Shown: positions 21,202 through 38,655, numbered from the stretch's first letter. The stretch: 46,529 nt of DNA from Candidatus Thorarchaeota archaeon (GCA_018238375.1 JABCTJ010000038.1:1-46529); one strand, 5' to 3'. The notes: generated from the letters alone by a model not told the origin. Program-made: numbers and translations.

Positions 21202-22518
21202 CTACTTGATATAAGCCACATGCACGCTGCACGAAACACAGGGGTCGTATGAGCGGACGACGGTTTCCAGCTTCTGTGCTATGGTTTTGGAATCGGTTAT
21301 GCCCTGCTCCAGAAGACCCTCTACCATTCTTCTCAGGTCAGCCTCCATCATCGGAAGGTACATAGCTGTTGGAGTGATGATGTTTGCAGCCCTAATTACT
21401 CCGTTCTTGCCAATCTTCAGAGTATATGCCAGCAGTCCGCGAGGAGCCTCGGTAACGCAGACGCCAGTTGCGGCCTTGGTGATCTCAAGCTCCACTCTGC
21501 GCTCATTTGGCTTGATAGAACTAGCCAGCTCGTCTGCTATGATTTCAGCTCTGTGTATGTAATGGACCAACTCTATCGCCTGGGCGAGGTTGTTAGACAG
21601 AGGATTCTTCGCATCGAGATACTCCTCATAGGTCCGAGCTAGAAGCTTGGCTCTTTTTGAAAGCCCATCGTTGAACAGAGTGAACCTAGATAGTGCCCCA
21701 GTCATAAAGGGCTGATCGTTGTAAGCGCCATGTTTCGCAAAGGAGTGTGGAACGACCTTCTCACTGATGCGCATCTGGTATGCTTTTGCCTTGAACTTGC
21801 TACCATCACTAGCCAGTATGGTATCGCCGAACATTGTGTATGTTCCATCAATGGGCTTAAGCGCAAGATGTACTCGCTCAGCTTCGACTTCAGGCCAAAG
21901 AGAGAAGTCCACAAACTGCTCCAGTGCTTCCTCTGCAACGTCATGGAGAGACCTCAGTTTTTGTCGCATCGTTTCCCAAGACTTCTTCGGAGGGATCTTG
22001 CCAAAGCCGCCTATCAAGGCGTTCTCCTGATGGATTGCTCTTGAGCCTATGACGGTTTGAATGTGTGCACCCATGTCCTTGAGAGCGATTGCAGCATTCA
22101 GGATGTCCTTGTGCGCACTTTGCATTGAGAACACATCTGGAAAACCAAGGAAATCCGGAAGAGCAAGGAAGAACAGATGCAGAGTATGGCTCTGGATGAA
22201 GTCGCCAATGTACAGCAACTCGCGCATCTTCATAGTCTGCTCGCTAGGCTCCAAACCCATAGCGTTCTCAGCAGCTAGCACGGAAGTGATTTTGTGGGCG
22301 GCAGCGCAGAATGAACACACTCGGGAAAAGACAGCAACAGCCTCTTCCACATGTTTCCCAACTGCTATCGCCTCGAAGAATCGCGGACCTTCGAAAACGT
22401 TGACGTTGACCACATCCACCTTCTTGCCATCGAGAATGACCTCTATGCCTGCTTTTCCCTCAATTCGAGCAATATGGTCAACAGTGATTGGGTGTGTGAT
22501 CTTCTTTTTGGGCATCAC
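21202..22518 (-). CDS. hydA: Group 3b NiFe hydrogenase (sulfhydrogenase) large alpha subunit
   Basis: ARIEG, EGPRFFE, L1 RVCSFC, EAPRG, L2 DPCVSCSVH followed by a short cleavable tail. Confidence 0.95.
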   Translation of the reverse strand: MMPKKKITHPITVDHIARIEGKAGIEVILDGKKVDVVNVNVFEGPRFFEAIAVGKHVEEAVAVFSRVCSFCAAAHKITSVLAAENAMGLEPSEQTMKMRELLYIGDFIQSHTLHLFFLALPDFLGFPDVFSMQSAHKDILNAAIALKDMGAHIQTVIGSRAIHQENALIGGFGKIPPKKSWETMRQKLRSLHDVAEEALEQFVDFSLWPEVEAERVHLALKPIDGTYTMFGDTILASDGSKFKAKAYQMRISEKVVPHSFAKHGAYNDQPFMTGALSRFTLFNDGLSKRAKLLARTYEEYLDAKNPLSNNLAQAIELVHYIHRAEIIADELASSIKPNERRVELEITKAATGVCVTEAPRGLLAYTLKIGKNGVIRAANIITPTAMYLPMMEADLRRMVEGLLEQGITDSKTIAQKLETVVRSYDPCVSCSVHVAYIK

Positions 22519-23360
22519 TTCTTCCTCCCGAATGCTTTTTCCAGTCGCTCTTCGAGGTTCTTATCGAAGGAGCAAAATATCTTCATACGTTCCCGTATGT
22601 AATCCTTTGAGTAACCCTTGTTCCTGAATGTGATTGCCAGTGAATCAAACCATGAATTGTCATGAGGCACTGGACCCCTACAGCCTATGCAAGGAACACC
22701 AAAGCTTGGACATCGCGCCTTGCATCCTGCCACCGTGACTGGACCTAAGCAAGGAGCATCTCGTTCAATCAGTATGCACGGATTGCCCTCAAGGCGACAC
22801 TCGGCGCACACAGGATAATCAATTTCTTCAGGATACGAGCCAAAGAGAAACGTGCTCAAGAAGTACATTATCTCATCTTCTTCTGGAGGACAACCGGGAA
22901 GAAAATAGTCGACTTTCACGTAGGAATCAATCGGAGCAGCCTGCAAGCCCTTGTACTTGATCTTGGAATCGCCGTAGACTGATGCATAGAGTTCGTCGTA
23001 GCTAAGGTCGCCTTCAGACCAGCTCTGAACGCCACCGTTCACTGCACATGCGCCTATGGCGACTAGCACCTTCGCGTTCTTTCTGACCTCTTTCAATTCC
23101 TCAAGGTCTTTCTCAGTGGAAACCGAGCCTTCGACAAAGGCGATGTCAACTGGTTCATGCAGAGAACTCTTGCTTGAAACCATGTAGAAACACTTGAAGT
23201 CCACAAGGTTTGCTACCTCCATAATTTTCTCGACCGTGGCCATAACAAGCTGACAACCATAGCATGATGTGAGAACGTATACACCTACCGTGGCTCTGCA
23301 GACATCTCTGCACTCCTCGATTATCTCATGGTCGGGAAGTGTCATCTTCGAGCGTTCCAT
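22515..23360 (-). CDS. hydD: Group 3b hydrogenase small delta subunit
   Basis: LTSCYGCQL, EGSV, GACA..GG, PGCPP, PVC.EC, CLGPVT.AGC.A.CP, C.GCRG. Confidence 0.94.
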   Translation of the reverse strand: MERSKMTLPDHEIIEECRDVCRATVGVYVLTSCYGCQLVMATVEKIMEVANLVDFKCFYMVSSKSSLHEPVDIAFVEGSVSTEKDLEELKEVRKNAKVLVAIGACAVNGGVQSWSEGDLSYDELYASVYGDSKIKYKGLQAAPIDSYVKVDYFLPGCPPEEDEIMYFLSTFLFGSYPEEIDYPVCAECRLEGNPCILIERDAPCLGPVTVAGCKARCPSFGVPCIGCRGPVPHDNSWFDSLAITFRNKGYSKDYIRERMKIFCSFDKNLEERLEKAFGRKK

Positions 23361-24220
23361 TAGATCAACCCCGGAATGCTGATGATGTCATAATAATCGA
23401 ACACCGGCCCGTCCTTGCAGGCATACTTCCACGACGTGGCTGTGCCGAGGTTGCAGTGTCCACACTTGCCAACCCCACACTTCATGCGACGTTCAAGATT
23501 AACGAAAATGTACCGTGGGTCATAGCCTAGTGTAATCATCTGTTCGAACATTGACTTGTACATGCGAGGCGGCCCGCAAAGCGCGGCTGTGCACTTCTTG
23601 GAGTCAACATTCACTTTATCCAAATGCGTTGGTGCGCGTCCCGTCAAACCACCCCAGTCAGGGTCTCTAGTAGCAGTCTGAATGATCTCAATATTCTCAG
23701 CTGTTGCGATATCTCTCATTGCCCTCAGCTCTTTTGCAAAGAGCAAATCCTTGCCCAGCTTCGAGCTGTTGATGATTGTGATGTTGCCAAACAACCAGCG
23801 GTTGTCTAATGCGTAGAGGAAGACCGACCTGAGCGGGGCCATGCCGAGTCCAGCAGCTACGAGGAGTAGGTCTCTATCGTAGAATCGGTCCATTGGAAAG
23901 CCATTCCCATAGGGCCCCCGAATCCGCACCAAATCACCAGGCTTGAGCTTGTGAATCTCAGAGGTAACACGACCCGCCTCGCGAATGCAGAGCTCAAAGA
24001 ATCCCATCCTTCTAGCAGAGGAGCAGATTGAGATTGGTACTTCTCCATGCCCAAGGAGTGAGAGCTCTACAAACTGACCAGGCATGAACCGCCAGGACTG
24101 AGCTATCTCTGAATCATCAAAACGAAACAGGAAGAGCTTCTCGTGTTCAGTAAGGTCGTACACTCTCAAGAGACGACACTTGTGGGTTTCGTAGGTTTTC
24201 ATTGGGTCGGGTTTCGACAT
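23360..24220 (-). CDS. hydG: Group 3b hydrogenase gamma subunit (FAD/NAD(P)-binding, 2Fe-2S)
   Basis: PGQF, GEVPISICSS, RGPYGNGFP, AGLGMAPLRS, CGPP, ERRMKCGVGKCGHC...CKDGPVF. Confidence 0.94.
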   Translation of the reverse strand: MSKPDPMKTYETHKCRLLRVYDLTEHEKLFLFRFDDSEIAQSWRFMPGQFVELSLLGHGEVPISICSSARRMGFFELCIREAGRVTSEIHKLKPGDLVRIRGPYGNGFPMDRFYDRDLLLVAAGLGMAPLRSVFLYALDNRWLFGNITIINSSKLGKDLLFAKELRAMRDIATAENIEIIQTATRDPDWGGLTGRAPTHLDKVNVDSKKCTAALCGPPRMYKSMFEQMITLGYDPRYIFVNLERRMKCGVGKCGHCNLGTATSWKYACKDGPVFDYYDIISIPGLI

Positions 24221-25261
24221 CTAAGCTCCGCCTCCAGTTCCGTAGACTTCTAGCAGGTTTTCCTTGAATTGGATGTCTGCTGGGCAGAAATACGTACATC
24301 TGCCGCAACCTACGCAATATGAGGTTGTGGTGGTTTCGCAGTAAGCATTCTTGCACTGGTAGCGATTGAGGAAACGATCCTTTTTTGTTGGTCTGAAGTT
24401 GTGACCGCCCGCCACAAGCCCGTGCGACCTGAATTGGCAGGAATCCCAGAACCGGATACGCTCGCCCCCAGTCCCATCAAGAGTTGGCAGGTCTTTGACC
24501 TCATAGCAACGGCATGTCGGGCACGTAAGTGTGCAATTGCCACAACCAAGGCACTTGTCGCTCTCGCGCATGTACATGGGATGGTCGAGGTGCAATTCAA
24601 GACGATATCTCATGTCATCCCAGTTCCCTTGAACCGTGAACATGGACCTCCGTTTAGCCTCGAACTTTGCGAAGTTATCCTTATCATCGCTTGAAATTTC
24701 TTTGAAGTATTCCGGCGAGTTCTCGATTAGTTTGTGTCCGGTCACTGTTCCCACACGAACTAGATAGCCGTCAGGGAGTGGATGTAGGAAGAGATCGAAG
24801 CCTGCATCAACGAAATCAGTGCGGCGCACGCTGCAGAAACAATACTCATCAGGAAGGCAGGAGAGTCCAATGATTATTCCATTCTCTCTTCGAATCTGAT
24901 AGTAGGGGTCTGGTAGATCGTCAATGAAACGCGAGTCCATGATGCGCAGACCCACAATATCGCAAGCATGCACGCCGAAGAGTATAATGCGGTCTCCTGT
25001 GGGCAACGTTTCATGAATCTCAACATTAGCTGTGTCAAACGTGAAAACGGTCTCTCGCTCTGGGAAGAAGAATTTTCTTGGGGGAGTTATCGTCCGGTTG
25101 TACTCGAACTCCACCTCTTTGACATCGCCAATCTCTCTGAAGTCGTAAAATTTCTCTGAGATTTTCTTAGGCCCATAGAGAATCCCCATGGACTTCAATC
25201 GCTCAAGGAACTCGCAGACCTTTTCTTTTGGGAGCTTTACGTAGCGCATCTGTCCAGACAC
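24221..25261 (-). CDS. hydB: Group 3b hydrogenase beta subunit (4Fe-4S); likely start MRYVK at 25249
   Basis: [39 protein letters not shown]...CP. Confidence 0.94.
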
Positions 25262-27190: not shown

Positions 27191-30100
27191 ATGGTCAGCA
27201 AGGCATCCAAGAAGTCATCGGCAAAGCCCAAGCCTACTGACGTTGCTATAATTGGAGCTGGAATGGCAGGAATCAGCGCCGCACTCGCCCTCGCTGACGG
27301 CGGTCATCATGCCCATCTAATTGAGAGGACTGTAAGTATCGGGGGGGCTTATGTCGCCATTTACAAGATATTTCCTGCGCTCGAATGTAGCGCCTGCGTC
27401 ATGACTCCACTCACTTCATTCGTGGGCAAACACCTGAACATAACGATACACTCACTCTCAGAGGTAAAGAAAGTCAAGGGCAAGGCGGGCGACTTCACTC
27501 TGACTATTCACAAGAAGGCTCGCTACGTAGACGAGAACAAGTGCACTGGTTGCGGTCTCTGCATCGCGGCCTGTCCAGTGGAGGTCCCGAATCATTACGA
27601 CATGGGACTATCGCTGCGCAAGGCAATATACATGAACTTCCCACAGCAGATTCCTCTGCTGGCTGCCATTGATCGAGAATCGTGTATTGGCTGTGGGACC
27701 TGTGCTTCAGTGTGTCCGCAGGACTGCATCTTATACGATGACGAAGATAAGGAGTACGACCTGCACGTGGGTTCCATCATAAATGCTGCAGGATTTGAGG
27801 AATATCAGCCGACCGACTATGCAGAATACGGCTATGGTGTGTTTCCGAACGTCGTGACAAGCCTAGAGTACGATCGTCAAACACATCCAACAGGTCCGAC
27901 TGATGCGCACATGGTTCGCCCTTCTGATGGCAGGGAACCTGAAACCATCATGTTCGTGAACTGCGTTGGGTCAAGAGACGTTCGGGAGAATATCCAGGGG
28001 TACAGTCATCATTGTAACAGAGTCTGTTGTTCTTTCGGACTGAAGCTAGCCCAGGTCACGCGCATGCACTATCCCAAGGAGCACTGTAAAATCATCTACA
28101 CCTATATGGACATGCGCACCTGCGGGAAACTGCTGGAGGAGTTCCTCTGGGACTCGCAGCACAACATGGACATTGACTTCATCCGCGGCAGGATTGCTGA
28201 GATTAATGAAGACCCTGACACTCACGACCTCATGGTGAAGCTAGAGGATACCGAAAAAGGCGAGATTCAAGAGATCAAAGTGAACATGGTCGTTCTCAAC
28301 TCGAGCTTCAGGCCTGCTGAAGGTAACGAGGAACTTGCGAAGGTATTGGGCATCGAGCTCGATGAGGCGGGCTGGGTGAAGGAGAAGAACCCGAACTCAG
28401 CTGCACTCGAAACCACCCGTGCTGGCATATACATGGCTGGATGCATCCACGGACCAAAGGACGGAACAGACACCGTGAATGAAGGCAAGGGTGCGGCTAT
28501 GGCTGCACAATCAATACTACCGCTCCCACACCCCCCCGTACCTGAAGCAGTTCCGCCACTGGAGGTCGGAGAAGAGCCGAGAGTTGGCGTATTCATTTGC
28601 CATTGTGGAGGAATCATTGGCAATGTACTAGACTGTCCCAGCCTAGCTCAGTGGGCAAGCCATATTCCGAATGTAGCCTACAGCACAGATTATATTTTCA
28701 TGTGCAGCGACCCAGGCCAGGAGTTCATCACAGAGGCCATCAAGGAGCACAAGCTGAATCGCGTGGTCGTTGGTTCATGCTCACCACTTCAACATGAAGA
28801 CACTTTCAGACGCGCACTAGAGGCTGCTGGTATATCGGGTTACTATCTTGTGGGGCCCGTAGGGCTGAGAGAGATGATTGCGCTGGTCAACGCGAACGAC
28901 CCTCCAGATGTTCGCCAGGAGAAGGCGCAGGACATGATTCGTTCCGGCGTCGCCAAGGCCATCAATAATGAAATTGTACCTGTCAAGTCAGTAGACGTGA
29001 CTCGAGTTGCGATGATTGTTGGTGGGGGGGTTTCAGGAATGAGTGCTGCGCTTGACATTGCTCGGAAGGGCTTTAATGTCATCCTTGTTGAGAAAGAGGC
29101 CATACTTGGCGGAAGGCTAAATGACCTCTACAATTTATTCCCCAAGATGGAGAGCGCGCAAGAGATCGTGGACGACCTCACGGCACGCGTTGAGAAAGAG
29201 AAACGGATCAAGGTTCTGCTCAACTCGAAGCCAGTATTGAGGGAGGGGTCTTACGGTAACTACGGGATAACCATTCAGAACACAGAAACTGGAACGCAGG
29301 AAGTTCACACGATAGGCTCAATGGTCATCGCAACGGGTACAGACACCTACGACCCAAAGAAGGGAGAATATGGTTGGGAGGAAGTCCCAGGAGTCATTAC
29401 AACACTCCAGCTTGAGCGCATGCTAAGAAATGGAGAACTCAAGAAGCCACCAAAGAATCCGGTGTTTATCCACTGCGTCGGTTCAAGACAGAGCCCAGGA
29501 GAGGGGAACAGATACTGCTCAAGGGTGTGTTGTTCCGCAGTCATAGCTATGCAGCACGAACTGAAGGAGATGTTCCCGGACATCAGAGTGATCTCGGCCT
29601 ATAAGGAGCACATCCGCCCGTTCGCCAACGGTATGGAAGAGATGTGGCGGGAAAACCGTCAGAGGGGCGTCGTCTATCTACGCTGGATAAGAGAGAGACC
29701 GGTCACCGTCGAGAAAGCTCCTGATGCTGATGAGGCCATCGTAACAGTATATGATACTCTTTCCCAAGAAACCTTCAAGATACGATCCAACATGGTTGTG
29801 CTAGCGCTGGGCTTGGAGGCGCCCCATGATGTCAACGAACTCACCAAGGCATTAGGAATCAACCGAGGACAAGATGGATTCCTGCTTGAGGTCCATATGA
29901 AGTTCAAACCAGTGGAGACTACAGTCCCAGGCATCTTCTTGGGTGCAACCTACGCCAAGAACGTATCAGACTCAATCAACCAGGCACGCGGTGCAGCCAG
30001 CGCAGCCTGTGCTCCGCTCAATCTCGGTACTGTGAATATCGAGCTTTTGGCAGCAGAGGTGGATGAAGATCTCTGTGTTGGATGTGACCTCTGCCATTAT

Positions 30101-30292
30101 TCGGAGATTTGCCCCTACGATGCAGTTTCAATGGTGGAAGTATCGCCGGGTGTGAAAAAGAGCGTCACCAACGAGCTTGCATGTGAAGGATGTGGAGCAT
30201 GCTGTTCCATCTGCCCAACGGGAGCACGTGACCTCCGATGGTGGCGTGAGAAGAGCTTCTACGACCAGATAGAAGAGATGCTCAGGGAGTAG
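27191..30292 (+). CDS. hdrA: HdrA-like FAD/FeS protein with two HdrA FAD modules
   Basis: Two GxGxxG folds (IIGAGMAG, IVGGGVSG), two CVGSR..C.RVCC motifs, GVFICHCG, CS, SCSP and ferredoxin CxxCxxCxxxCP motifs. Confidence 0.92.
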   Translation: MVSKASKKSSAKPKPTDVAIIGAGMAGISAALALADGGHHAHLIERTVSIGGAYVAIYKIFPALECSACVMTPLTSFVGKHLNITIHSLSEVKKVKGKAGDFTLTIHKKARYVDENKCTGCGLCIAACPVEVPNHYDMGLSLRKAIYMNFPQQIPLLAAIDRESCIGCGTCASVCPQDCILYDDEDKEYDLHVGSIINAAGFEEYQPTDYAEYGYGVFPNVVTSLEYDRQTHPTGPTDAHMVRPSDGREPETIMFVNCVGSRDVRENIQGYSHHCNRVCCSFGLKLAQVTRMHYPKEHCKIIYTYMDMRTCGKLLEEFLWDSQHNMDIDFIRGRIAEINEDPDTHDLMVKLEDTEKGEIQEIKVNMVVLNSSFRPAEGNEELAKVLGIELDEAGWVKEKNPNSAALETTRAGIYMAGCIHGPKDGTDTVNEGKGAAMAAQSILPLPHPPVPEAVPPLEVGEEPRVGVFICHCGGIIGNVLDCPSLAQWASHIPNVAYSTDYIFMCSDPGQEFITEAIKEHKLNRVVVGSCSPLQHEDTFRRALEAAGISGYYLVGPVGLREMIALVNANDPPDVRQEKAQDMIRSGVAKAINNEIVPVKSVDVTRVAMIVGGGVSGMSAALDIARKGFNVILVEKEAILGGRLNDLYNLFPKMESAQEIVDDLTARVEKEKRIKVLLNSKPVLREGSYGNYGITIQNTETGTQEVHTIGSMVIATGTDTYDPKKGEYGWEEVPGVITTLQLERMLRNGELKKPPKNPVFIHCVGSRQSPGEGNRYCSRVCCSAVIAMQHELKEMFPDIRVISAYKEHIRPFANGMEEMWRENRQRGVVYLRWIRERPVTVEKAPDADEAIVTVYDTLSQETFKIRSNMVVLALGLEAPHDVNELTKALGINRGQDGFLLEVHMKFKPVETTVPGIFLGATYAKNVSDSINQARGAASAACAPLNLGTVNIELLAAEVDEDLCVGCDLCHYSEICPYDAVSMVEVSPGVKKSVTNELACEGCGACCSICPTGARDLRWWREKSFYDQIEEMLRE

Positions 30293-30298
30293 CTGCCG

Positions 30299-30865
30299 TT
30301 GGTGTCAGTTAACGACCTCCACGCAGGATGGATGGTTCTGAATAAACTGCTTGGAGAGCTGCGGTCGAAGGGAGTTTTCATTCCAGACCTCATCTATGCA
30401 GACCTAAGGAATAGTAAGATGGTCATCGAGTATCTAAGGTCATTCGGCAGTGAGATCAAGCAGCCTGAGCAGTGCGATGCCGATCTTCAACATGAGATGG
30501 AGATAAAGGTCCAGGGACTTCGAGAAATCCTGATGGTCTGGGCGGAAGAAAAGGATGGTGTCCAATATAGACAGGCCTGGGAAACAAGATTCGATGATGC
30601 CATTCACGGACGGGGAGAAGTAGCTTCGGAGGACCCACCGATGCCCATCTCTGATTTGCCCAGAGAAAAGGATGTGAGCTTCTTCCGAATCAGGTTGCCT
30701 GATGAGATTCCAGTGGAGATAGTTTCAGAGCTTGCGGAGGACTGTCGTGTATTGATATCACTCGATGGCGATAGACACTTGCAAGTGAGCGGCAAGAAAG
30801 AATGCGTCCGTGATGCGATGAAGAGGCTTGGGGAACTCTTCTATGGTCGTAGTGAGCTTGGCTAG
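30299..30865 (+). CDS. DUF2096-family protein
   Basis: W.VL..LL.EL..KG..IP...DLR..K..I N-terminus and C-terminal ..L.ELAE...V.I......L.V.G.KE.V..AMK; starts 6 bp after hdrA. Confidence 0.72.
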   Translation: MVSVNDLHAGWMVLNKLLGELRSKGVFIPDLIYADLRNSKMVIEYLRSFGSEIKQPEQCDADLQHEMEIKVQGLREILMVWAEEKDGVQYRQAWETRFDDAIHGRGEVASEDPPMPISDLPREKDVSFFRIRLPDEIPVEIVSELAEDCRVLISLDGDRHLQVSGKKECVRDAMKRLGELFYGRSELG

Positions 30866-30990
30866 GACTGGATAGAGAAGCTAGCTGTCGTTCATTGGGC
30901 GTACGAAACGACACTATTTTATGGGCGTTCTTGTCCGATGCAGGCAAATCTGAGGACATTTTTGTCGTAAAACAGAAGGTGAATCTCACA

Positions 30991-32937
30991 ATGGTGTCGG
31001 TGGCTAAAAGTATTCTTGCAAAACACGTTGAAGTGGGCGATTCCAAGCTCATCCCAGGCAATGCGATTGGAATCAGGATAGACCGTACCTTAACACAAGA
31101 CGCTACAGGTACAATGGCTTACCTGCAATTCGAGGCGATGGGTCTCGACAAGGTGAAGACGGAACTCTCCGTTTCGGTTGTTGATCACAATATGCTTCAA
31201 TCTGATTTCAAGAACGCTGATGATCACTTGTACTTGCAGTCAGTTGCAGCTAAGTACGGTATACTATTCTCACGACCGGGAAATGGTATTTGCCATCAAG
31301 TATTCCTTGAAAGGTTCTCCAAGCCAGGAGCAACTCTCATTGGATCTGACTCCCATACTCCGACTTCAGGTGGAGTGGGGATGATTTCCATAGGTGCAGG
31401 TGGACTTGACGTCGCTGTTGCGATGGGGGGCGGGTTGTTCTACATAACAGTTCCCAAGATTATGGGAATGAAACTAACTGGTAAACTCCGCGACTTCGTA
31501 TCAGCAAAGGACATCATACTTGAGGTGTTAAGAAGAATTGGTGTGAAAGGAGGAAGGGGCTATATCTTGGAATACTTCGGCCCTGGACTGAAGTCGTTAT
31601 CCGTTACTGAGCGAGCCACCATTACCAATATGGGCACTGAAACTGGTGCGACAACCTCGATTTTTCCATCAGATGAGATCACGAAGGCGTTCTTTAAACT
31701 TCAGCAACGAGAAGACGATTGGGTCAGCATTCCAACCGGACTGGAAGAAGACTTCGATGAGGTGATTGAGATTGACCTCAACAAGTTGGAGCCTATGATA
31801 GCCAAGCCCCATTCCCCAGGGAATGTTGTACCGCTTTCAGAGCTTGAAGGCAAATTAGTGGATCAAGTTGCTATTGGTTCGTGTACCAACTCGTCAATCA
31901 AGGACATGGCAATGGTTGCAGCCCTTCTCAAGGGCAAGACGATCCATTCTAGAACGACCCTGGGAATATCGCCGGGATCTAGGCAGGTGTTGAAGTATTT
32001 AGCGGAAAAAGGAATGCTGGCTGATATAATTTCAAGCGGAGGCAGAATCCTGGAGAGCGGCTGTGGTCCATGCATTGGCATGGGATTTGCACCGCCATCA
32101 GGAAGTGTTTCAATCAGAACATTCAATCGTAACTTTCGGGGCCGCAGCGGCACGATTGATTCAGAAGCTTATCTTGTCAGTCCAGAGGTTGCTGTGGCGG
32201 CGGCAATCTACGGAGAGATAACGGACCCAAGGAAGCTGGGTGCTTATCCAAAGATCGAGATGCCAACCTCCATCAACATTGATGATTCGATGATTCTCAA
32301 ACCTTCCGATCACCCTGAAGGCATCGAAATTATACGTGGTCCGAACATTCAATCACTTCCGGAAGCTATACCCCTTCCCGAAAAGCTGCCTAAGTTGAAT
32401 GCCCTAATCAAAGTCGAGGACGACATAACAACTGACCACATCATGCCCGCAGGAGCCAAAATTCTGCCACTGCGATCAAACCTGCCCAAGATAAGCGAGT
32501 TTGTCTTTTCACAGGTGGATACAACATTCGCATCGAGAGCTCTCGAGTCTAAGGAAACCGGGGGAGGAATTATCATTGCTGGCGAAAACTACGGTCAAGG
32601 GTCAAGCCGCGAACATGCTGCTCTCGCACCAATGTATCTTGGAATCAGAGTGGTTGCGGTGAAGTCATTTGCCCGCATTCACAAGGCGAATTTGATCAAC
32701 GTTGGAATCCTTCCAGTTGAGTTTGCAGACTCTGATGGTTTCGATAAGATTGATGCTGGAGATTCACTAGAGATAGCGGGTATTCGCACAGCCTTGGAAA
32801 AGGGGGAAAAGATGTTGGCAATTCGGAACACGACCAAGAATATTGATATTCCCGTCACCTATGAGCTTTCCGAGCGTGAAAGGAAGATTATGTTGGCTGG
32901 AGGTCTTCTGAATTACACGAAAGAGGGAGGAATCTAG
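30991..32937 (+). CDS. acn: Aconitate hydratase (start MVSV at 30991 after AAGGTGA)
   Basis: TQDATGTMA, DHN, GNGICHQV, GSDSHT, GSCTN, CGPCIGMG, FNRNF.GR, TTDHI.PAG, NYGQGSSREHA. Confidence 0.95.
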   Translation: MVSVAKSILAKHVEVGDSKLIPGNAIGIRIDRTLTQDATGTMAYLQFEAMGLDKVKTELSVSVVDHNMLQSDFKNADDHLYLQSVAAKYGILFSRPGNGICHQVFLERFSKPGATLIGSDSHTPTSGGVGMISIGAGGLDVAVAMGGGLFYITVPKIMGMKLTGKLRDFVSAKDIILEVLRRIGVKGGRGYILEYFGPGLKSLSVTERATITNMGTETGATTSIFPSDEITKAFFKLQQREDDWVSIPTGLEEDFDEVIEIDLNKLEPMIAKPHSPGNVVPLSELEGKLVDQVAIGSCTNSSIKDMAMVAALLKGKTIHSRTTLGISPGSRQVLKYLAEKGMLADIISSGGRILESGCGPCIGMGFAPPSGSVSIRTFNRNFRGRSGTIDSEAYLVSPEVAVAAAIYGEITDPRKLGAYPKIEMPTSINIDDSMILKPSDHPEGIEIIRGPNIQSLPEAIPLPEKLPKLNALIKVEDDITTDHIMPAGAKILPLRSNLPKISEFVFSQVDTTFASRALESKETGGGIIIAGENYGQGSSREHAALAPMYLGIRVVAVKSFARIHKANLINVGILPVEFADSDGFDKIDAGDSLEIAGIRTALEKGEKMLAIRNTTKNIDIPVTYELSERERKIMLAGGLLNYTKEGGI

Positions 32938-32938
32938 A

Positions 32939-34216
32939 TTGGCACAAAAATCAATTAATGAGTATTCAGCAAAGAAACTGATTGCTGGAGAACTGGTGAA
33001 ATACTTCCCCGAGTTCAACTACCACGGGAAGCTAGCTGTAATAACTCCTGAAACCAAGTGGGAGGAGCTTGTGAAAGAAAATCCGTGGCTGAAAACTGAC
33101 AAGCTGGCTGCAAAACCAGACCAGCTATTTGGAAAGAGAGGCAAGGCGAATCTACTACTACTAGATGCAAGCTTAGCCGACCTAAAGTCGTTCATCAAAG
33201 AGAAGATGAACAAGGAGATGGTCGTTGGTGAAACGAAAGGGACACTGAACAGGTTCCTAGTCGAACCCTTTATTCCCCATGACAAGGAGTTCTACGTTTC
33301 CATCACGTCAGACCGTGATAATGACATCATCCATTTCTCGCTGGAAGGAGGTATTTTCGTAGAGGAGAACTGGGATAAAGTGTCACACATTCCGATACCC
33401 ATCGGAACTGACATCGACTCGTTCAATCTGGCCGAGAAGTTGCCAGATCTTGGGGAGCTGGGAGATGTTGTTGTTTCCTTTGTCAAGGGGTTATTGCAGG
33501 TCTACATTGATCAGGACTTCGCGTTCATGGAAATCAATCCTTTCGCTGTCACTGAAGACAAGTTGGTAGTTCCTCTGGACCTCAAAGCTCGTCTTGATGA
33601 TACAGCGGCGTTCAAGCATTCCGACACGTGGGGCAATTACAATAACCCAATCAAGTTTCCAGTTTCGTTCGGTCAGAAGTTCTCCAAAGAGGAAGAATAC
33701 ATCAGAAGCATCGACGAACAAACAGGTTCTTCGTTGAAGTTGACGGTTCTCGATCGCGACAAACGAATTTGGACTATGGTAGCCGGAGGTGGTGCAAGCG
33801 TTGTCTACGCAGACACCATCGTGGACCTAGGATTTGGTGCTGAACTTGCGAACTACGGAGAATACAGTGGGAACCCCAGCCGCGAGCACACTGAGTTGTA
33901 CGCCCAGACACTTATCGACCTCATGACAGAGAAACCGGATCCGAAGGGGCTCCCGAAAATCCTTCTGATTGGTGGCGGAATCGCCAACTTCACAGATGTG
34001 AAAGCCACTTTCGCAGGTATTGTGAGTGCTCTGAGGAAATCAGCTGACAAGCTGAAGAAAGTGAACGTGAAGATCTATGTACGCCGTGGAGGACCCAATG
34101 AGAAGGAGGGCCTGAAGCTCATGAAAGATGTCGGAGAAGAAATGGGCATTCCCATCGAAGTGTACGACAGATACACTCCAATGACCCGAATTGTACCTTT
34201 GGCCCTGAAGGAGTGA
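32939..34216 (+). CDS. aclB: ATP-citrate lyase beta subunit (ATP-grasp + citrate-binding)
   Basis: KPDQLFGKRGK, EPF.PH..E.Y, EINPF, LDDTA.F, SLKLT, WTMVAGGGASVVYAD, ELANYGEYSG.P, GGGIANFT.V, VRRGGPN. Confidence 0.95.
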   Translation: MAQKSINEYSAKKLIAGELVKYFPEFNYHGKLAVITPETKWEELVKENPWLKTDKLAAKPDQLFGKRGKANLLLLDASLADLKSFIKEKMNKEMVVGETKGTLNRFLVEPFIPHDKEFYVSITSDRDNDIIHFSLEGGIFVEENWDKVSHIPIPIGTDIDSFNLAEKLPDLGELGDVVVSFVKGLLQVYIDQDFAFMEINPFAVTEDKLVVPLDLKARLDDTAAFKHSDTWGNYNNPIKFPVSFGQKFSKEEEYIRSIDEQTGSSLKLTVLDRDKRIWTMVAGGGASVVYADTIVDLGFGAELANYGEYSGNPSREHTELYAQTLIDLMTEKPDPKGLPKILLIGGGIANFTDVKATFAGIVSALRKSADKLKKVNVKIYVRRGGPNEKEGLKLMKDVGEEMGIPIEVYDRYTPMTRIVPLALKE

Positions 34217-34223
34217 CGTAAGA

Positions 34224-36059
34224 ATGGAAGACTATGAATTATTCAACAGAGACTCCCAAGCGATTGTTTATGGATTCCAGCGAAACGCAATCCAGCGAAT
34301 GTTGGACTTTGACTTTGTCAGCAAGCGGAAAACGCCTAGTGTTGCTGCGATAATCCGGCCCACTCAAGCAGGGGCAATCGGTTACCACAAGGTTTTCTGG
34401 GGCGGCAAAGAGATTGTTATACCTATTTACAAAAAGCTGGAGCTTGCCGCAAAGAATCATGCTACAGTAGATGTCCTAATCAACTTCTCATCATTTCGAT
34501 CATCCTACCCAACATCGAAAGAGGCTTTGGAAACTGAAAGCATTCGGGTCTTGGTCATAATCGCTGAAGGAATACCGGAGCGACAGAGCCGTGAGCTCAT
34601 TAAGCTTGCAAAAGAGAAGAATAAGATAATCATCGGACCGGCCACTGTTGGTGGAATTCGAGCAGGCGCCTTCAAGATTGCCAATACAGCAGGCACCATA
34701 GAGAACATCGTCAAGTCAAAGCTCTACCGACCAGGCAGCGTGGGTTTTGTATCCAAGTCCGGTGGGATGAGCAATGAAATGAATTTCATGATATCTCAAA
34801 ACACCGACGGAATACTGGAAGGCATTGCAATTGGCGGAGATCGGTACGCTGGATCTTTGCTCATCGACCACATCCTTCGATATGAAGCCAATCCACAGGT
34901 GAAGTTGATTGTTTGTTTGGGCGAGATCGGAGGGATGGACGAGTACTCGATTGTGGAGGCCGTGAAAGATGGCCGTATCAAGAAACCCATTGTGATGTGG
35001 GTGACAGGTACCTCTTCCAAGATATTTCCAGCAGGTGTTCAATTCGGTCACGCTGGCGCAATGGCTGGAAGTGACATGGAAACAGCAGATGCAAAGAACA
35101 AAGCGCTTGCTGAAGTAGGTGTTATTGTCCCCGAATCATACGACACCTTTGGTGACAAGATACGTGAAACCTTTGAGAAATTGAAAGCCGAAGGGAAGAT
35201 AGAGGCCTTGGATGACTTTGAACCCCCACAGATTCCTCAGGACTATAGCAAAGCCTCAGCTCAAGGGATTGTTCGAAGACCGACAGACGTGGTAGTCACC
35301 ATTTCTAACGAGAGGGGTGACATCCTCACGTACAATGGAGTTCCGATTGACAAGATAATCAGTGAAGAACTCTCCCTTGGATACGTGATTGGGCTACTCT
35401 GGCTGAAGAAGGAGTTGCCTCCGTTTGCCGCGAAATACATCGAACTAGTGCTGAAGTTGACTGCGGACCACGGGCCAGCCGTATCAGGCGCTCACAACGC
35501 CATTGTGACTGCGCGAGCTGGAAAGGATTTGATGGCGTCACTAGCCAGTGGCATATTGACGATAGGCCCAAGATTTGGCGGTGCTATCTCCGATGCTGCC
35601 AAGTATTTCAAAATGGCTCTGGATTCCGGAAAGCATCCACCGGACTTCATTAATTACATGAAGGACGTTGTAGGGATTAACATCCCAGGAATCGGCCATA
35701 GAATCAAGTCCGTTCAGAATCCGGATATCCGGGTTACGCTTCTGAAAAAGTTCGTAAATGAGAACTTCCCGAAGCATCCATACTTAGACTATGCTCTTGA
35801 GGTCGAGAAGCTGACCACACAAAAGAGAAATAACTTGATTCTTAATGTGGACGGTTGCATTGGAATCTGTTTCCTTGACCTGATGGAGAATATTGACCTA
35901 ACCCCTGAAGAAAAGCAAGATGTCCTAGACACAGAGGTCTTGAATGGGCTCTTTGTGCTTGGGAGATCAATCGGGATGATGGGGCATATATTCGACCAGA
36001 AACGCCAACGTGCTGCACTGTATCGACAGCCGTGGGATGAGATACTATACGCTTCATAA
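34224..36059 (+). CDS. aclA: ATP-citrate lyase alpha subunit (CoA-binding, phospho-His and citryl-CoA lyase domains)
   Basis: QRMLDFDF, IIAEGIPE, IGPATVGG, YRPGSV..VSKSGGMSNE, QFGHAGA, ADHGPAVSGAHN, GIGHRIKS..NPD.RV, LILNVDG. Confidence 0.96.
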   Translation: MEDYELFNRDSQAIVYGFQRNAIQRMLDFDFVSKRKTPSVAAIIRPTQAGAIGYHKVFWGGKEIVIPIYKKLELAAKNHATVDVLINFSSFRSSYPTSKEALETESIRVLVIIAEGIPERQSRELIKLAKEKNKIIIGPATVGGIRAGAFKIANTAGTIENIVKSKLYRPGSVGFVSKSGGMSNEMNFMISQNTDGILEGIAIGGDRYAGSLLIDHILRYEANPQVKLIVCLGEIGGMDEYSIVEAVKDGRIKKPIVMWVTGTSSKIFPAGVQFGHAGAMAGSDMETADAKNKALAEVGVIVPESYDTFGDKIRETFEKLKAEGKIEALDDFEPPQIPQDYSKASAQGIVRRPTDVVVTISNERGDILTYNGVPIDKIISEELSLGYVIGLLWLKKELPPFAAKYIELVLKLTADHGPAVSGAHNAIVTARAGKDLMASLASGILTIGPRFGGAISDAAKYFKMALDSGKHPPDFINYMKDVVGINIPGIGHRIKSVQNPDIRVTLLKKFVNENFPKHPYLDYALEVEKLTTQKRNNLILNVDGCIGICFLDLMENIDLTPEEKQDVLDTEVLNGLFVLGRSIGMMGHIFDQKRQRAALYRQPWDEILYAS

Positions 36060-36062
36060 TGA

Positions 36063-37406
36063 ATGAGTGTGAATATAATGACAAAGTACGAGAAACTAGT
36101 TCCACCCTCAAAGGGAGAGAAAGTTACAGTCAAGGATGGCAAATGGAACATTCCCGATAACCCCATAGTCTGTTGGGTTGAGGGAGATGGCATTGGCCCC
36201 GAGATTAGCAAAGTAATGATAAAAATCGTGGACGCCGCAGTAGAAAAGGCATACAACGGGAAACGGAAGTTCGAATGGTTTGAGATCTTTGCCGGCGATA
36301 AGGCGAGAGAGCTCTATAACCCGGAGGTCACGGATGAGGAGCTTAAGGCGCTCAGTCCTGATGAGCAAAGAATGACCTATTTGCCCGATGACACACTGCA
36401 GGTCGTTCGGGATTACCATTTGGCAATCAAGGGGCCATGCACGACCCCCATAGGCAAAGGATTCTCCTCGATAAATGTCGGCATTCGCAAGTCCTTGGGC
36501 CTGTTTGTCTGTCTTAGACCTGTGTGGCACATCAAAGGCGTTCCGGCCCCGGTCAAAGATCCCGATGCAATAGATATGGTGATTTTCAGAGAGAACATAG
36601 AGGACATATACGCAGGCATAGAGGGCTATCCGGGAACCAAGAGAACACAGAAGCTCATAGATTTCCTCAGAACGGAATGGAATGTACCGGCGGACTCCGA
36701 TAGCTTGCGATCCTCTGCAGGCATATCTGTGAAACCAATGTCACCCGAGAACACTAAGCGACTAGTAAGAAAAGCAATTCAATATGCTATTGACCACAAG
36801 AAGCGTGTGGTGACCCTGTGTCATAAGGGCAACATCATGAAAGCTACAGAGGGCCAGTTCAGAAACTGGGGCTACGAAGTTGCTATTGATGAGTTCAGAA
36901 ACCAAATCGTTACGGAGAAGGAACTGAACGACAAGTACGGTGGCGACAGAGAGAAGGCCTACGCTGATGGAAAGATCCTTGTGAACGATCGCATAATGGA
37001 TGCGATGTTCCAACAAGTGCTTCTGAGACCTCGTGAGTATGAGGTCGTAGCGCTGCCTAACCTCAATGGTGACTATCTCTCAGACCAATTGGCTGCTCAA
37101 GTTGGTGGACTCGGGTTTGCGCCAGGTGCAAACCTCAGCAATGATATCTTCTTCGCTGAAGCAACTCATGGAACCGCTCCGAAGCATGCGGGAAAGAACC
37201 GAATCAACCCAGGTTCTATCACCTTGTCTGCATGTCTTCTGCTGGAACACATGGGATGGAACGAGGCATCTGAGATGATCAAAACCGCAGTTTCTAGGGC
37301 GGTTGAATCTAAGAATGTCACTTACGATATCGCGCGGCAACTGAAACCAACAGTGAAGCCAATTTCTACTAGCGCGTTCGGAGAAGAAATCATCAAGAAC
37401 TTGTAA
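36063..37406 (+). CDS. icd: Isocitrate dehydrogenase, subfamily I, probably NADP-dependent
   Basis: EGDGIGPEI, IKGP.TTP.G.G..S.NV, FREN.EDIYAGIE, HKGNIMK.TEG, NLNGDYLSD, EATHGTAPKH, VTYDIAR. Confidence 0.95.
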   Translation: MSVNIMTKYEKLVPPSKGEKVTVKDGKWNIPDNPIVCWVEGDGIGPEISKVMIKIVDAAVEKAYNGKRKFEWFEIFAGDKARELYNPEVTDEELKALSPDEQRMTYLPDDTLQVVRDYHLAIKGPCTTPIGKGFSSINVGIRKSLGLFVCLRPVWHIKGVPAPVKDPDAIDMVIFRENIEDIYAGIEGYPGTKRTQKLIDFLRTEWNVPADSDSLRSSAGISVKPMSPENTKRLVRKAIQYAIDHKKRVVTLCHKGNIMKATEGQFRNWGYEVAIDEFRNQIVTEKELNDKYGGDREKAYADGKILVNDRIMDAMFQQVLLRPREYEVVALPNLNGDYLSDQLAAQVGGLGFAPGANLSNDIFFAEATHGTAPKHAGKNRINPGSITLSACLLLEHMGWNEASEMIKTAVSRAVESKNVTYDIARQLKPTVKPISTSAFGEEIIKNL

Positions 37407-37488: not shown

Positions 37489-38655
37489 ATGACAGAAACT
37501 CCACCACGTGGTCACTCTTATTTTGGTTTTGAACAGGGTCCTATACGGCCCCCAAACGAGGCGCATAGCCTCCTCCTGCGTGTGACTAGGAACTGCCCGT
37601 GGAATCGCTGCACCTTCTGCCCAGTATACAAGGGGGCACGGTATTCGAAACGTTCAGTAGACCATGTGAAGAAGGACATTGACTTAGTCCACAAATGTGT
37701 GGGAATCCTCCAAGGGATTGCTGAGGAGTACGATGGCTTACCAACAGCGCAGGTCAGAAATGCAACTGACAATCTTGATTCAGAGGAATGGGCGGCATTT
37801 GATAGTGCCTTTAGATGGTTTAGAGCTGGAATGAGTTCCATCTTTCTGCAGGATGCAGACAGTCTGACAGTGCGGCCATCGGAATTGATTGAGATTCTGA
37901 AGTACATTAGAATCCGCTTTCCTTTCGTGAATCGTGTGACATCCTATTCTCGTTCGAGCACAATAGCGAGGATAGATGAGGAGGACTTGAAGGCGATAAG
38001 AGAATCAGGCTTAGATAGAGTCCATGTAGGTCTCGAGTCCGGATCTGACAACGTGTTGAAGCTGGTCAAGAAAGGGGCGACTAAGGCCATTCACATTAGC
38101 GCAGGCCTGAAAGCCAAGAGAGCGGGGTTGGAGCTCTCAGAATACGTTATGCCAGGTCTTGGGGGAGTACGATTGTCAGAAGAACATGCGTTAGAAACAG
38201 CGGATGCGCTGAATCAAATCAATCCGGACTTCATCCGGTTCAGACAGCTGGCAATCCCAATCGTTGCACCACTCTCGAAGGACCATATGGAAGGACGCTT
38301 TGAGAAATGCACAGATATGATGGTAGTGGGTGAACTCCTTACACTGATTGAAAACCTGAAAGGGATTACAAGTATTGTCAAGAGCGATCACATACTGAAC
38401 CTCTTCTCAGAAGTGGAAGGAACTCTCCCTAAAGACAAGGAGAAGATGCTTGAGCCATTGCGGGCATTCCTTGTGATGAACCCCAAGAAACAGCGTCTGT
38501 ACCAGATAGGCCGAAGAATCGGAGTCTTCTCAACCTTGAAAGACATGAATGATTCAGTGAGGGTTGTTCGTGTCCAAGAAACCTATGATGCGCTTGGTGT
38601 CACTGCTGAAAACATCGACCACATAGTAGAGGAGCTAATGAAACGCTTCATCTAG
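37489..38655 (+). CDS. Radical SAM protein (EQGPIRPP.EA family, Cx4CxxC motif)
   Basis: FEQGPIRPPNEA.SLLLRVTRNCPWNRCTFC, FLQDA, HVGLESG.D, SEYVMPGLGG, SDHILNL. Confidence 0.88.
   Translation: MTETPPRGHSYFGFEQGPIRPPNEAHSLLLRVTRNCPWNRCTFCPVYKGARYSKRSVDHVKKDIDLVHKCVGILQGIAEEYDGLPTAQVRNATDNLDSEEWAAFDSAFRWFRAGMSSIFLQDADSLTVRPSELIEILKYIRIRFPFVNRVTSYSRSSTIARIDEEDLKAIRESGLDRVHVGLESGSDNVLKLVKKGATKAIHISAGLKAKRAGLELSEYVMPGLGGVRLSEEHALETADALNQINPDFIRFRQLAIPIVAPLSKDHMEGRFEKCTDMMVVGELLTLIENLKGITSIVKSDHILNLFSEVEGTLPKDKEKMLEPLRAFLVMNPKKQRLYQIGRRIGVFSTLKDMNDSVRVVRVQETYDALGVTAENIDHIVEELMKRFI

Follow-up and report, generated by a model that had tools for sequence, protein, structure and literature searches.

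An aconitase, ATP-citrate lyase and isocitrate dehydrogenase operon in a Thorarchaeota genome: gene identity, distribution and possible direction of flux

This report describes four adjacent genes, acn, aclB, aclA and icd, which occupy positions 30991..37406 on the + strand of a 46,529-nucleotide stretch of DNA from Candidatus Thorarchaeota archaeon (GCA_018238375.1, JABCTJ010000038.1:1-46529). The whole stretch is called the window below, and it is one contig (C49) of a metagenome-assembled genome (MAG) of 2.51 Mb in 282 contigs, which is 92.59% complete with 5.31% contamination. The genes encode an aconitate hydratase, the two subunits of ATP-citrate lyase (ACL) and an isocitrate dehydrogenase (IDH), and together these enzymes would form a reversible link in which 2-oxoglutarate, CO2 and NADPH are interconverted with isocitrate and then citrate, and citrate, ATP and CoA with acetyl-CoA, oxaloacetate, ADP and Pi. 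The sequence alone fixes no direction for the flux through this link, and net flux is judged slightly more likely to be reductive in this Thorarchaeon, which appears to scavenge peptides and amino acids.

The four genes lie head to tail and are arranged as follows: acn (30991..32937, 648 aa, aconitate hydratase of the PRK07229 / TIGR01342 type), aclB (32939..34216, 425 aa, ACL beta subunit with an ATP-grasp and a citrate-binding domain), aclA (34224..36059, 611 aa, ACL alpha subunit with a CoA-ligase domain bearing the GHAGA histidine and a citryl-CoA-lyase module) and icd (36063..37406, 447 aa, IDH of the E. coli-type homodimeric class). In the open reading frame (ORF) listing of the window the longest frame for acn is 30895..32937, with a TTG start; the ATG at 30991 is the likelier start because it is preceded by GAAGGTGA and because the aconitases of congeners align over 100% of the 648 aa. 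The spacers between the genes are therefore 1, 7 and 3 bp, and the same spacing had been given in a preliminary description of the window, which is borne out here by the ORF coordinates and the family matches. Upstream of acn there is an intergenic spacer of 125 bp (30866..30990, + strand), in which an A/T-rich TATTTTAT is found about 60 bp 5′ of the ATG and the GAAGGTGA motif immediately 5′ of it; as read from the sequence, this spacer possibly holds a putative promoter and ribosome-binding site of the operon's own.

The ACL subunits were identified by profile matches and by alignment to solved structures. AclB matches PF24948 with 232.3 bits (cut-off 83) and PF16114 with 261.3 bits (cut-off 26.8), both over the full profile length, and AclA matches the CoA-ligase family PF00549 with 70.4 bits and the citrate-synthase-like family PF00285 with 77.3 bits at residues 398-601. 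AclA is collinear with the ACL of Methanosaeta concilii (6hxi_B) over residues 2-609 at 785 bits, compared with 730 bits for human ACLY and only 407 bits for AclA of Chlorobium limicola. The motifs GHAGA, ADHGPAVSGAHN, GIGHRIKS and LNVDGC are kept in the alignment to solved ACLs; the string VQFGHAGA is identical in 6hxi_B and human ACLY, and residues H276, H492 and D543 are invariant across 15 diverse AclA sequences. The GHAGA loop is presumably the site of the phosphorylated histidine. In PDB 6znw, as compared with 6hxi, Ala replaces the Asp of the lyase module (that of LNVDGC), and 6znw would appear to be an engineered catalytic mutant. On these alignments AclBA is assigned as a two-subunit ATP-citrate lyase with intact catalytic motifs, and its subtype is that of Methanothrix and ACLY. 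The nearest named relatives of AclA are labelled Thorarchaeota, with 81% identity in one search and 99% for two congeners in another.

The aconitase carries PF00330 and PF00694 in one chain and scores 929 bits against NF005558 (cut-off 612), 908.5 bits against TIGR01342 (cut-off 719) and 403 bits against the aconitase_mito model (cut-off 825), by which it is classified as an aconitate hydratase of the NF005558 / TIGR01342 type. Icd passes the NADP-IDH model TIGR00183 narrowly, with 573.2 bits against a cut-off of 567.3, and NF005425 with 537.1 bits (cut-off 490), and it reaches 23.9 bits against TIGR00127. Its best solved relatives are NADP-IDHs, the top one being 5m2e_A with 454 bits. The residues which we take to give NADP specificity in E. 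coli IDH are Lys344, Tyr345, Tyr391 and Arg395; Icd has HGTAPKHAG and VTYDIAR where 5m2e_A has HGTAPKYAG and VTYDFER, so that the Lys, Tyr and Arg are kept and the Tyr345 position is His. Icd is probably NADP-dependent. It also has a 16-residue insertion, EVTDEELKALSPDEQR, at residues ~89-104 relative to the closest solved NADP-IDH.

Parts of all four genes are represented in contigs assembled from RNA libraries (four runs from two studies) at a likeness of 93-99%. One record spans the aclB-aclA junction and three span the aclA-icd junction, one of them of 1787 nt. Strand, transcript start, the presence of a single transcript and transcription as such are outside the reach of such assembled contigs, and carry-over of DNA is possible; cover is absent over 32058-33233 and most of 36762-37349, which is uninformative. 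The contigs are compatible with expression in close relatives.

The distribution of ACL in Asgard archaea was surveyed in an even sample of 251 genomes, in which the enzyme was scored by its citrate-binding domain. ACL was found in 65 of them, two of the matches being weak (G025 and G148). It is uncommon inside the Thorarchaeal family of the window (f1), where 6 of the 59 sampled genomes other than its own carry it, and the counts in four other families are 34/54, 14/16, 5/5 and 3/3. Sixty stretches around the matches were retrieved; one with a weak aclB-like match only (L086, from G148) was left out, and the neighbouring genes were clustered for 60 loci, comprising 59 relatives and the window, many of which are ended by contig ends, so the counts are lower bounds. 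Across families the genes that recur near ACL are AclA (60/60), AclB (59/60), a dehydrogenase of the Iso_dh family (45/60) and aconitase (20/60), and nothing else. The same order and flanks are found in three congeners at 94-99% protein identity, another genus of the family has 71-81% identity, and the acn-aclB-aclA-icd order is found also in genus g8 and in family f21. The gene arrangement is therefore not due to chance, because it recurs with the same flanks in three congeners and also in another genus and in other Asgard families. In our literature search no description of this gene order in Thorarchaeota was found in the parts of the sources that were accessible.

In most loci of Loki/Heimdall/Hod type, aclB-aclA is followed by an Iso_dh gene whose product is 27-31% identical to the window Icd. 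Four such loci of families f9/f22/f24 were scanned (L050:10580-11770, L078:4865-6061, L046:4949-6148 and L070:4736-5947), and the best models of the ~400-aa Iso_dh member after aclA are IDHs; against these, as against the homoisocitrate and isopropylmalate dehydrogenase models, it attains roughly half the cut-off. The presence of two Iso_dh subfamilies in the same slot next to aclA argues that ACL is functionally coupled to a beta-decarboxylating dehydrogenase. In several Lokiarchaeia-type loci of family f9 a second, shorter gene, whose product is 27-31% identical to 40-50% of AclA, was also observed 0.2-5 kb upstream of aclB (L042, L058, L061, L062, L065, L067, L071, L079 and L080). A replacement of the Wood-Ljungdahl pathway by ACL was considered and rejected: in family f1, CdhC occurs in 1 of 7 genomes with ACL vs 23 of 53 without, and in family f9, CdhC occurs in 50/54 and ACL in 34/54, kin not being independent in these counts. 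There is no general rule connecting the two, because most f9 genomes carry CdhC and many carry ACL.

Outside Asgard archaea, prokaryotes were scanned with one genome per species, which gave at least 592 ACL-encoding stretches among at least 601 pattern matches, and the best 80 were compared. At 55-64% identity these best 80 include Thermoplasmata, Methanotrichaceae, Bathyarchaeia, Micrarchaeota, Methanophagales, Anaerolineae, Elusimicrobia, Myxococcota, Deltaproteobacteria, Thermotogae and others. The pairing of acn with aclBA is found, among the matches listed, also in Bathyarchaeia, Thermoplasmata, Micrarchaeota, Myxococcota, Elusimicrobia and others. Of the best 80, 57 are non-Asgard loci; an aconitase of the same type (at least 45% identity) is present in 32 of these 57, lying directly upstream of aclB (within 200 bp) in 22, and an E. 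coli-type icd is present in 4. Within the same best 80 of at least 592, two Micrarchaeota loci and one Thermotogae locus have the icd together with an acn upstream of aclB-aclA, the genes being directly adjacent as acn-icd-aclB-aclA in one of them only (L133), and one archaeon has the order aclB-aclA-acn-icd. This breadth indicates that the compact cassette is a widespread unit and not a peculiarity of this genome, and the cassette is evidently mobile. The statement that a two-subunit ACL is uncommon in archaea, made in the preliminary description, is outdated in view of the 65 of 251 Asgard genomes and the other archaeal lineages.

The relation of AclA to other ACLs was studied in a tree of 102 rows, a quick LG+G4 reconstruction in which SH-aLRT is the sole support for deep branches and several pairs of long branches come together. 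The window AclA groups with two other sequences of family f1 (support 96), this group is sister to 20 rows of Heimdall/Hod/Promethearchaeota, and the resulting Asgard clade of 23 rows has a support of 100. This clade has as its sister a group of Myxococcota, Deltaproteobacteria and Riflebacteria (support 97). The eukaryotic rows of this tree are a fungus, a dinoflagellate and two further representatives of ACLY length, a nematode being present only in the other LG+G4 tree; they group with fused metagenomic forms of 1026-1040 aa (support 98), as one branch of an 85-row polytomy of archaea and bacteria. When the Asgard core and the four eukaryotic rows were forced together, delta lnL was 52 and p-AU (approximately unbiased test) was 0.076, for a group that had been chosen after the tree was seen. 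A clade of Asgard and eukaryotic AclA is accordingly not favoured by this comparison and not formally rejected. The preliminary description had linked this ACL to eukaryotic ACLY, and of this link the homology and the shared subtype stand (730 bits to human ACLY against 407 to C. limicola), but a sister relation to the Asgard clade was not seen in the 102-row tree, where the sister is bacterial (Myxococcota-like).

Two observations were made beside this tree. Fused single-chain AclB-AclA forms from metagenomes (P0018, P0024 and P0030, on contigs of up to 102 kb) are 50-52% identical to the window AclA and group with ACLY in both trees; these may be the Thermoplasmatota-E3 forms of Santana-Molina et al. 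The Asgard ACLs are also not of one origin, as the AclA of G220 (L038, G220:C1) groups with Thermoplasmata and the sequence of family f21 (L035-L037) with one of a Desulfuromonadaceae MAG. In the accessible text of Santana-Molina et al. 2025 (PMC11976288) eukaryotic ACLA/B is placed with DPANN and ACLY with Thermoplasmatota-E3, and ACL across Asgard archaea is reported there and in bioRxiv 10.1101/2022.10.25.513756; the 102-row tree agrees with both, as far as their accessible parts go.

The other 40 ORFs of the window were scanned by family profiles and no tricarboxylic acid (TCA) cycle gene was found among them, as had been noted from the window itself. The term "self-contained", which had been applied to the module, is overstated at the level of the genome, since further enzymes of this kind lie on other contigs. 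On C30 there is a four-subunit Kor-like 2-oxoacid:ferredoxin oxidoreductase, of which the alpha subunit matches the generic model NF006412 with 544 bits (cut-off 411) and the beta subunit has its best match to the 2-oxoglutarate:ferredoxin oxidoreductase (OGOR) beta subunit at 251 bits, below the cut-off of 364. C100 carries another Kor-like alpha subunit, and the genome also has Por/Vor-type enzymes, one 2-oxoacid:ferredoxin oxidoreductase of two subunits and two indolepyruvate oxidoreductases. SucCD is on C235, both subunits being above their cut-offs (SucC 461 and SucD 412 bits). On C234 there are a TfrA-like flavoprotein (677 bits, cut-off 718), an SdhB/TfrB-like Fe-S subunit which is cut by the contig end, and a class I fumarase, whose alpha subunit has 321.1 bits (equivalog cut-off 276) and whose beta subunit passes only a subfamily-domain model (208.2 vs 145.15). 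A GTP-dependent phosphoenolpyruvate carboxykinase (PEPCK), found by a Pfam match alone, links oxaloacetate to phosphoenolpyruvate. It was further observed that C205 (L096:3718-8579, minus strand) carries an mmdA-like 12S carboxyltransferase (854 bits, cut-off 998), a 5S subunit of PycB/OadA type, a biotin carrier (biotin carboxyl carrier protein, BCCP) and a thiolase-domain protein, and that an oligopeptide-binding protein adjoins this cluster; the cluster resembles a methylmalonyl-CoA:pyruvate transcarboxylase, and the formation of propionate would agree with this.

Malate dehydrogenase was found neither as Ldh_1_C (PF02866) nor as Ldh_2 (PF02615) in the own genome, where malic enzyme was not searched, and the Ldh_1_C type was found in none of five congeners nor in G046, G103 and G191 (92-97% complete). 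As this enzyme did not turn up, the cycle stays unclosed. CdhC of the carbon monoxide dehydrogenase/acetyl-CoA synthase (CODH/ACS) was absent from the own genome, five congeners and G046, and acetyl-CoA is therefore not made by the Wood-Ljungdahl pathway here. The earlier reading of the operon as a stand-alone module is thus half right: other genes of the reductive TCA (rTCA) type do exist in the genome, but the cycle is not closed and no citrate synthase or CODH/ACS was found.

These genes bear on the possibility that citrate cleavage by the operon is one limb of a complete rTCA cycle serving autotrophic or mixotrophic CO2 fixation, which we consider improbable. The Kor-like oxidoreductase, SucCD, the TfrA-like protein with fumarase, the Por/Vor-type enzymes and PEPCK would all serve such a cycle; there is no Wood-Ljungdahl acetyl-CoA synthase to compete with it, and hydrogenases and many Hdr genes lie in the window. 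ACL, IDH and OGOR in Lokiarchaeia are read as rTCA in the accessible text of Bulzu et al. (bioRxiv 10.1101/385732). However, besides the missing malate dehydrogenase, the TfrA-like and Kor-beta proteins are below their equivalog cut-offs, the genes are spread over at least four contigs among unrelated neighbours, and the fumarase, the Tfr-like reductase, SucCD and the 12S/5S/BCCP cluster suit a succinate or propionate fermentation at least as well, in a genome whose content is that of a peptide and amino-acid fermenter. A complete and co-regulated rTCA cycle elsewhere in the genome, which the preliminary description had named as the finding that would speak against its reading, was not seen, the genes being scattered, and its caution that ACL should not be taken as proof of rTCA autotrophy is supported.

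Much of the same gene set would allow an oxidative branch for energy, in which acetyl-CoA and aspartate-derived oxaloacetate are converted via citrate, 2-oxoglutarate and succinyl-CoA to succinate, with ATP gained at ACL and SucCD and the electrons of NADPH and ferredoxin passed on to a syntrophic partner in the form of H2. The genome has every enzyme needed for this (ACL, Acn, IDH, the Kor-like enzyme and SucCD), a hydrogenase of the NADPH type is nearby, and a gain of ATP at ACL has a precedent, known from a paper's title only. On paper, however, it would yield no more ATP than separate acetate routes and would leave more reducing equivalents to be released as H2, and no gene linkage supports it, so that we regard it as very improbable indeed.

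The search for enzymes acting on citrate gave a clearer picture. No match to the citrate-synthase family (PF00285) was found in the own genome besides AclA, and the sole match to HMGL-like genes, which we take to be the family of the Re-citrate synthases, was the 5S carboxyltransferase subunit, with no isopropylmalate, citramalate or homocitrate synthase found. As the 5S subunit is the only HMGL-like gene, there is no candidate Re-citrate synthase and no leuA; this suggests that the organism may be a leucine auxotroph, or a leuA-type gene may lie in the missing 7% of the genome, and the lack of a leuA-type gene also suggests an amino-acid scavenger. The congeners G046 (L091:4390-5385) and G206 (L092:3481-4497) have a divergent citrate-synthase-like gene for 331-338 aa (TIGR01800 181 bits, cut-off 421), located between an amidohydrolase gene and a radical SAM/SPASM gene. 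In the own genome only 184 bp separate the same two flanking genes, on C200 (1740-1924), with nothing between them, and no copy was found elsewhere by tblastn; because the neighbours adjoin, the gene is truly absent at the syntenic site and not lost in an assembly gap. About 30 further genomes of family f1 have a similar full-length citrate-synthase-like gene at about 190-235 bits. Apart from ACL, no enzyme that would form or cleave citrate is recognisable in this 92.6%-complete genome.

In the 65 ACL-bearing Asgard genomes the tally of ACL against citrate synthase was read by hand from the profile matches. No citrate-synthase-family gene beyond AclA was seen in 38 of them, of which seven are at 100% completeness (G040, G083, G113, G147, G174, G177 and G207) and four are without even the AclA part detected; five have intermediate matches only (ORFs of 260-720 aa), and 22 have a clear citrate-synthase-family gene as well (E <= 1e-50), several on the ACL contig. 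The 38 genomes fit an ACL which stands in for citrate synthase. It is possible, though on balance doubtful, that ACL works mainly in reverse as such an ATP-conserving substitute, after which Acn and IDH would make 2-oxoglutarate and NADPH for the glutamate family, as the oxidative branch of a horseshoe-type TCA pathway. The lack of any other candidate in the own genome, with its true absence at the syntenic site, fits this explanation, and so does the layout, since an operon of a citrate-forming enzyme with aconitase and IDH is the classic arrangement of the biosynthetic branch to 2-oxoglutarate. The ACL of Desulfobacter postgatei is said to form citrate with a gain of ATP, going by the title of a 1987 paper of Moller, Schauder, Fuchs and Thauer that is cited in PMC12137691. 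The ACL cassette is also present in plainly heterotrophic lineages (Myxococcota, Elusimicrobia, Anaerolineae and Thermotogae), and oxaloacetate could be supplied by PEPCK or by the carboxyltransferase cluster. Against citrate synthesis by ACL, 2-oxoglutarate is available directly from glutamate and histidine, and a dedicated biosynthetic branch seems less needed because the organism appears to scavenge amino acids. The 22 genomes that retain citrate synthase indicate that ACL is not simply a replacement, and citrate cleavage is the direction of ACL in nearly all characterised systems.

The genes for the formation of 2-oxoglutarate from amino acids were also surveyed. The set leading from histidine to glutamate and 2-oxoglutarate, which the preliminary description had assumed by way of hut, is complete: hutH (725 bits) and hutU (412 bits) lie in the window, both above their cut-offs, hutI is on C258, a formimidoyltransferase (FTCD_N) on C224 and two glutamate dehydrogenase (GDH) genes on C149. 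A four-subunit NiFe hydrogenase is encoded at 21202-25261, ~6 kb upstream of the operon, and its closest match is the NADPH-dependent sulfhydrogenase I HydBGDA, with scores below the equivalog cut-offs; at this level of likeness, the earlier claim of a nearby NADPH-type (group 3b) hydrogenase is supported.

The explanation which we tentatively favour, at somewhat less than even chances, is a reductive carboxylation of amino-acid-derived 2-oxoglutarate followed by cleavage of citrate by ACL. Glutamate obtained from histidine (through hutHUI and the formimidoyltransferase) and from peptides would be deaminated by GDH, and the NADPH of this step would be used again by IDH to carboxylate 2-oxoglutarate. 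The citrate formed through aconitase would then be cleaved by ACL; oxaloacetate could leave via PEPCK, or via the transcarboxylase-like 12S/5S/BCCP enzyme toward pyruvate, and acetyl-CoA could give ATP via ADP-forming acyl-CoA synthetases. On paper, the net reaction would be glutamate to 2 acetate, CO2, NH3 and H2 with 1 ATP, which is the same 1 ATP as in an oxidative route via the Kor-like oxidoreductase but with one H2 fewer. The same enzymes could run the other way when 2-oxoglutarate must be made. The lean towards the reductive direction is drawn from the amino-acid routes to 2-oxoglutarate, the look of a scavenger, the lack of a Wood-Ljungdahl pathway, the exits for oxaloacetate, and an NADPH-type hydrogenase near an NADP-type IDH.

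Several points weigh against this explanation. The balance of ATP and H2 is arithmetic and not data, and the classic biosynthetic layout of the operon, the D. postgatei precedent and the 38 of 65 genomes without another citrate-synthase-family gene, all described above, speak for the other direction. Biosynthetic genes (proC, ilvB-like, ilvD and asnA) adjoin the cassette in other Asgard loci, none of them recurring across families. The NADP assignment of Icd comes from a family score that exceeds its cut-off by 6 bits, and one of the four specificity residues is changed (Tyr345 to His). The genome is 92.6% complete with 5.3% contamination.

A more specific form of the reductive explanation is that the cassette serves a catabolic, redox-neutral fermentation by the reversed branch, in which glutamate or histidine would pass through 2-oxoglutarate, isocitrate and citrate to acetyl-CoA and oxaloacetate, and then to 2 acetate, CO2 and H2 with a net 1 ATP; taken as a whole, this is rather unlikely. 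No description of glutamate fermentation via ACL was found for any prokaryote in our literature search, in the accessible parts of its sources. If it is true, the fermentation of glutamate and histidine via ACL would be a prokaryotic counterpart of the eukaryotic IDH-aconitase-ACLY route, in the archaeal phylum closest to eukaryotes.

The remaining ORFs of the window include, beside hutH, hutU and the sulfhydrogenase-like NiFe hydrogenase, genes for Hdr proteins, exosome and proteasome genes and transporters. Directly before the operon on the + strand there are a gene for an HdrA-like flavo-iron-sulfur protein (27191-30292, 1033 aa, with two flavin domains and ferredoxin domains) and a gene for a DUF2096 protein (30299-30865), which lies upstream of the acn spacer. 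This pair precedes the ACL genes also in three congeners and in genus g15 (G167), with L029, L031 and L034 among the loci where it was seen; in genus g15 the order is HdrA-like-DUF2096-aclB-aclA without acn and icd inside the stretch; in genus g8 the operon is flanked instead by hdrA2-hdrC-hdrB. The linkage of Hdr/DUF2096 to ACL is restricted to family f1, the window's own family. On the 3′ side, a radical SAM gene (37489..38655, + strand) starts 82 bp after icd with no oligo-T run between them; it is kept at the same place in two loci of the same genus only (L029 and L031), a third (L030) ending short of it. Beyond it, on the opposite strand, are hdrB, hdrC and a gene for an HdrA2-MvhD fusion.

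That Asgard archaea have ACL was already published in 2018, and a loose relation to ACLY is also published, as far as the accessible texts show. The enzyme and its Asgard occurrence were already known, so the discovery is ordinary and adds modestly to what is known. Metagenome surveys widely take ACL genes as a marker of autotrophic rTCA, and this use is unsafe in view of the present case and of the breadth of the cassette in heterotrophic lineages. The Thorarchaeal genus can be used as a test case for the role of ACL without a citrate synthase (in the own genome), a Wood-Ljungdahl pathway or a closed cycle. It bears on amino-acid fermentation in Asgard archaea and on a possible archaeal functional precedent for the eukaryotic cytosolic route to acetyl-CoA.

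Several known systems can be compared with the operon. The ACL, IDH and OGOR of Lokiarchaeia, as given in the accessible text of bioRxiv 10.1101/385732, are of the same phylum and share the ACL family with the operon, and the window AclA falls into the 23-row clade with Heimdall-, Hod- and Promethearchaeota sequences; the same source, Bulzu et al., reports TCA components as missing in Thorarchaeia. The Thorarchaeal genus differs from Lokiarchaeia in that no Wood-Ljungdahl acetyl-CoA synthase or malate dehydrogenase was found, and in its E. coli-type IDH. Desulfobacter postgatei, known here from a paper's title only, resembles it as an anaerobe that has no conventional role for citrate synthase and in which ACL is the sole enzyme between acetyl-CoA plus oxaloacetate and citrate, but it is a sulfate respirer with a closed oxidative cycle, whereas no malate dehydrogenase was found in the Thorarchaeon. 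The ACL of M. concilii (Methanothrix; PDB 6hxi / 6znw) shares a collinear AclA, the GHAGA and lyase motifs and the split into aclB and then aclA, and Methanotrichaceae fall into the same large ACL group. It differs in having only ~60% identity to the window AclA; in the loci of Methanotrichaceae, aclA is followed by a gene of the aconitase family, with only 35-39% identity to the window acn, and there is no adjacent icd. M. concilii is an aceticlastic methanogen with a physiology unlike that of the Thorarchaeon. AclBA of Chlorobium limicola (PDB 6hxj) has the same two-subunit architecture and chemistry but is far more distant (407 bits), and it is part of a proven autotrophic rTCA cycle. Cytosolic reductive carboxylation in eukaryotes is performed by IDH1, ACO1 and ACLY, and the likeness claimed for it in the preliminary description agrees with the gene identities given here: the reaction set is identical, with the same NADPH dependence and the same ACL subtype, while ACLY is a fused single chain and the subfamilies of IDH1 and ACO1 are not those of the icd and acn of the window.

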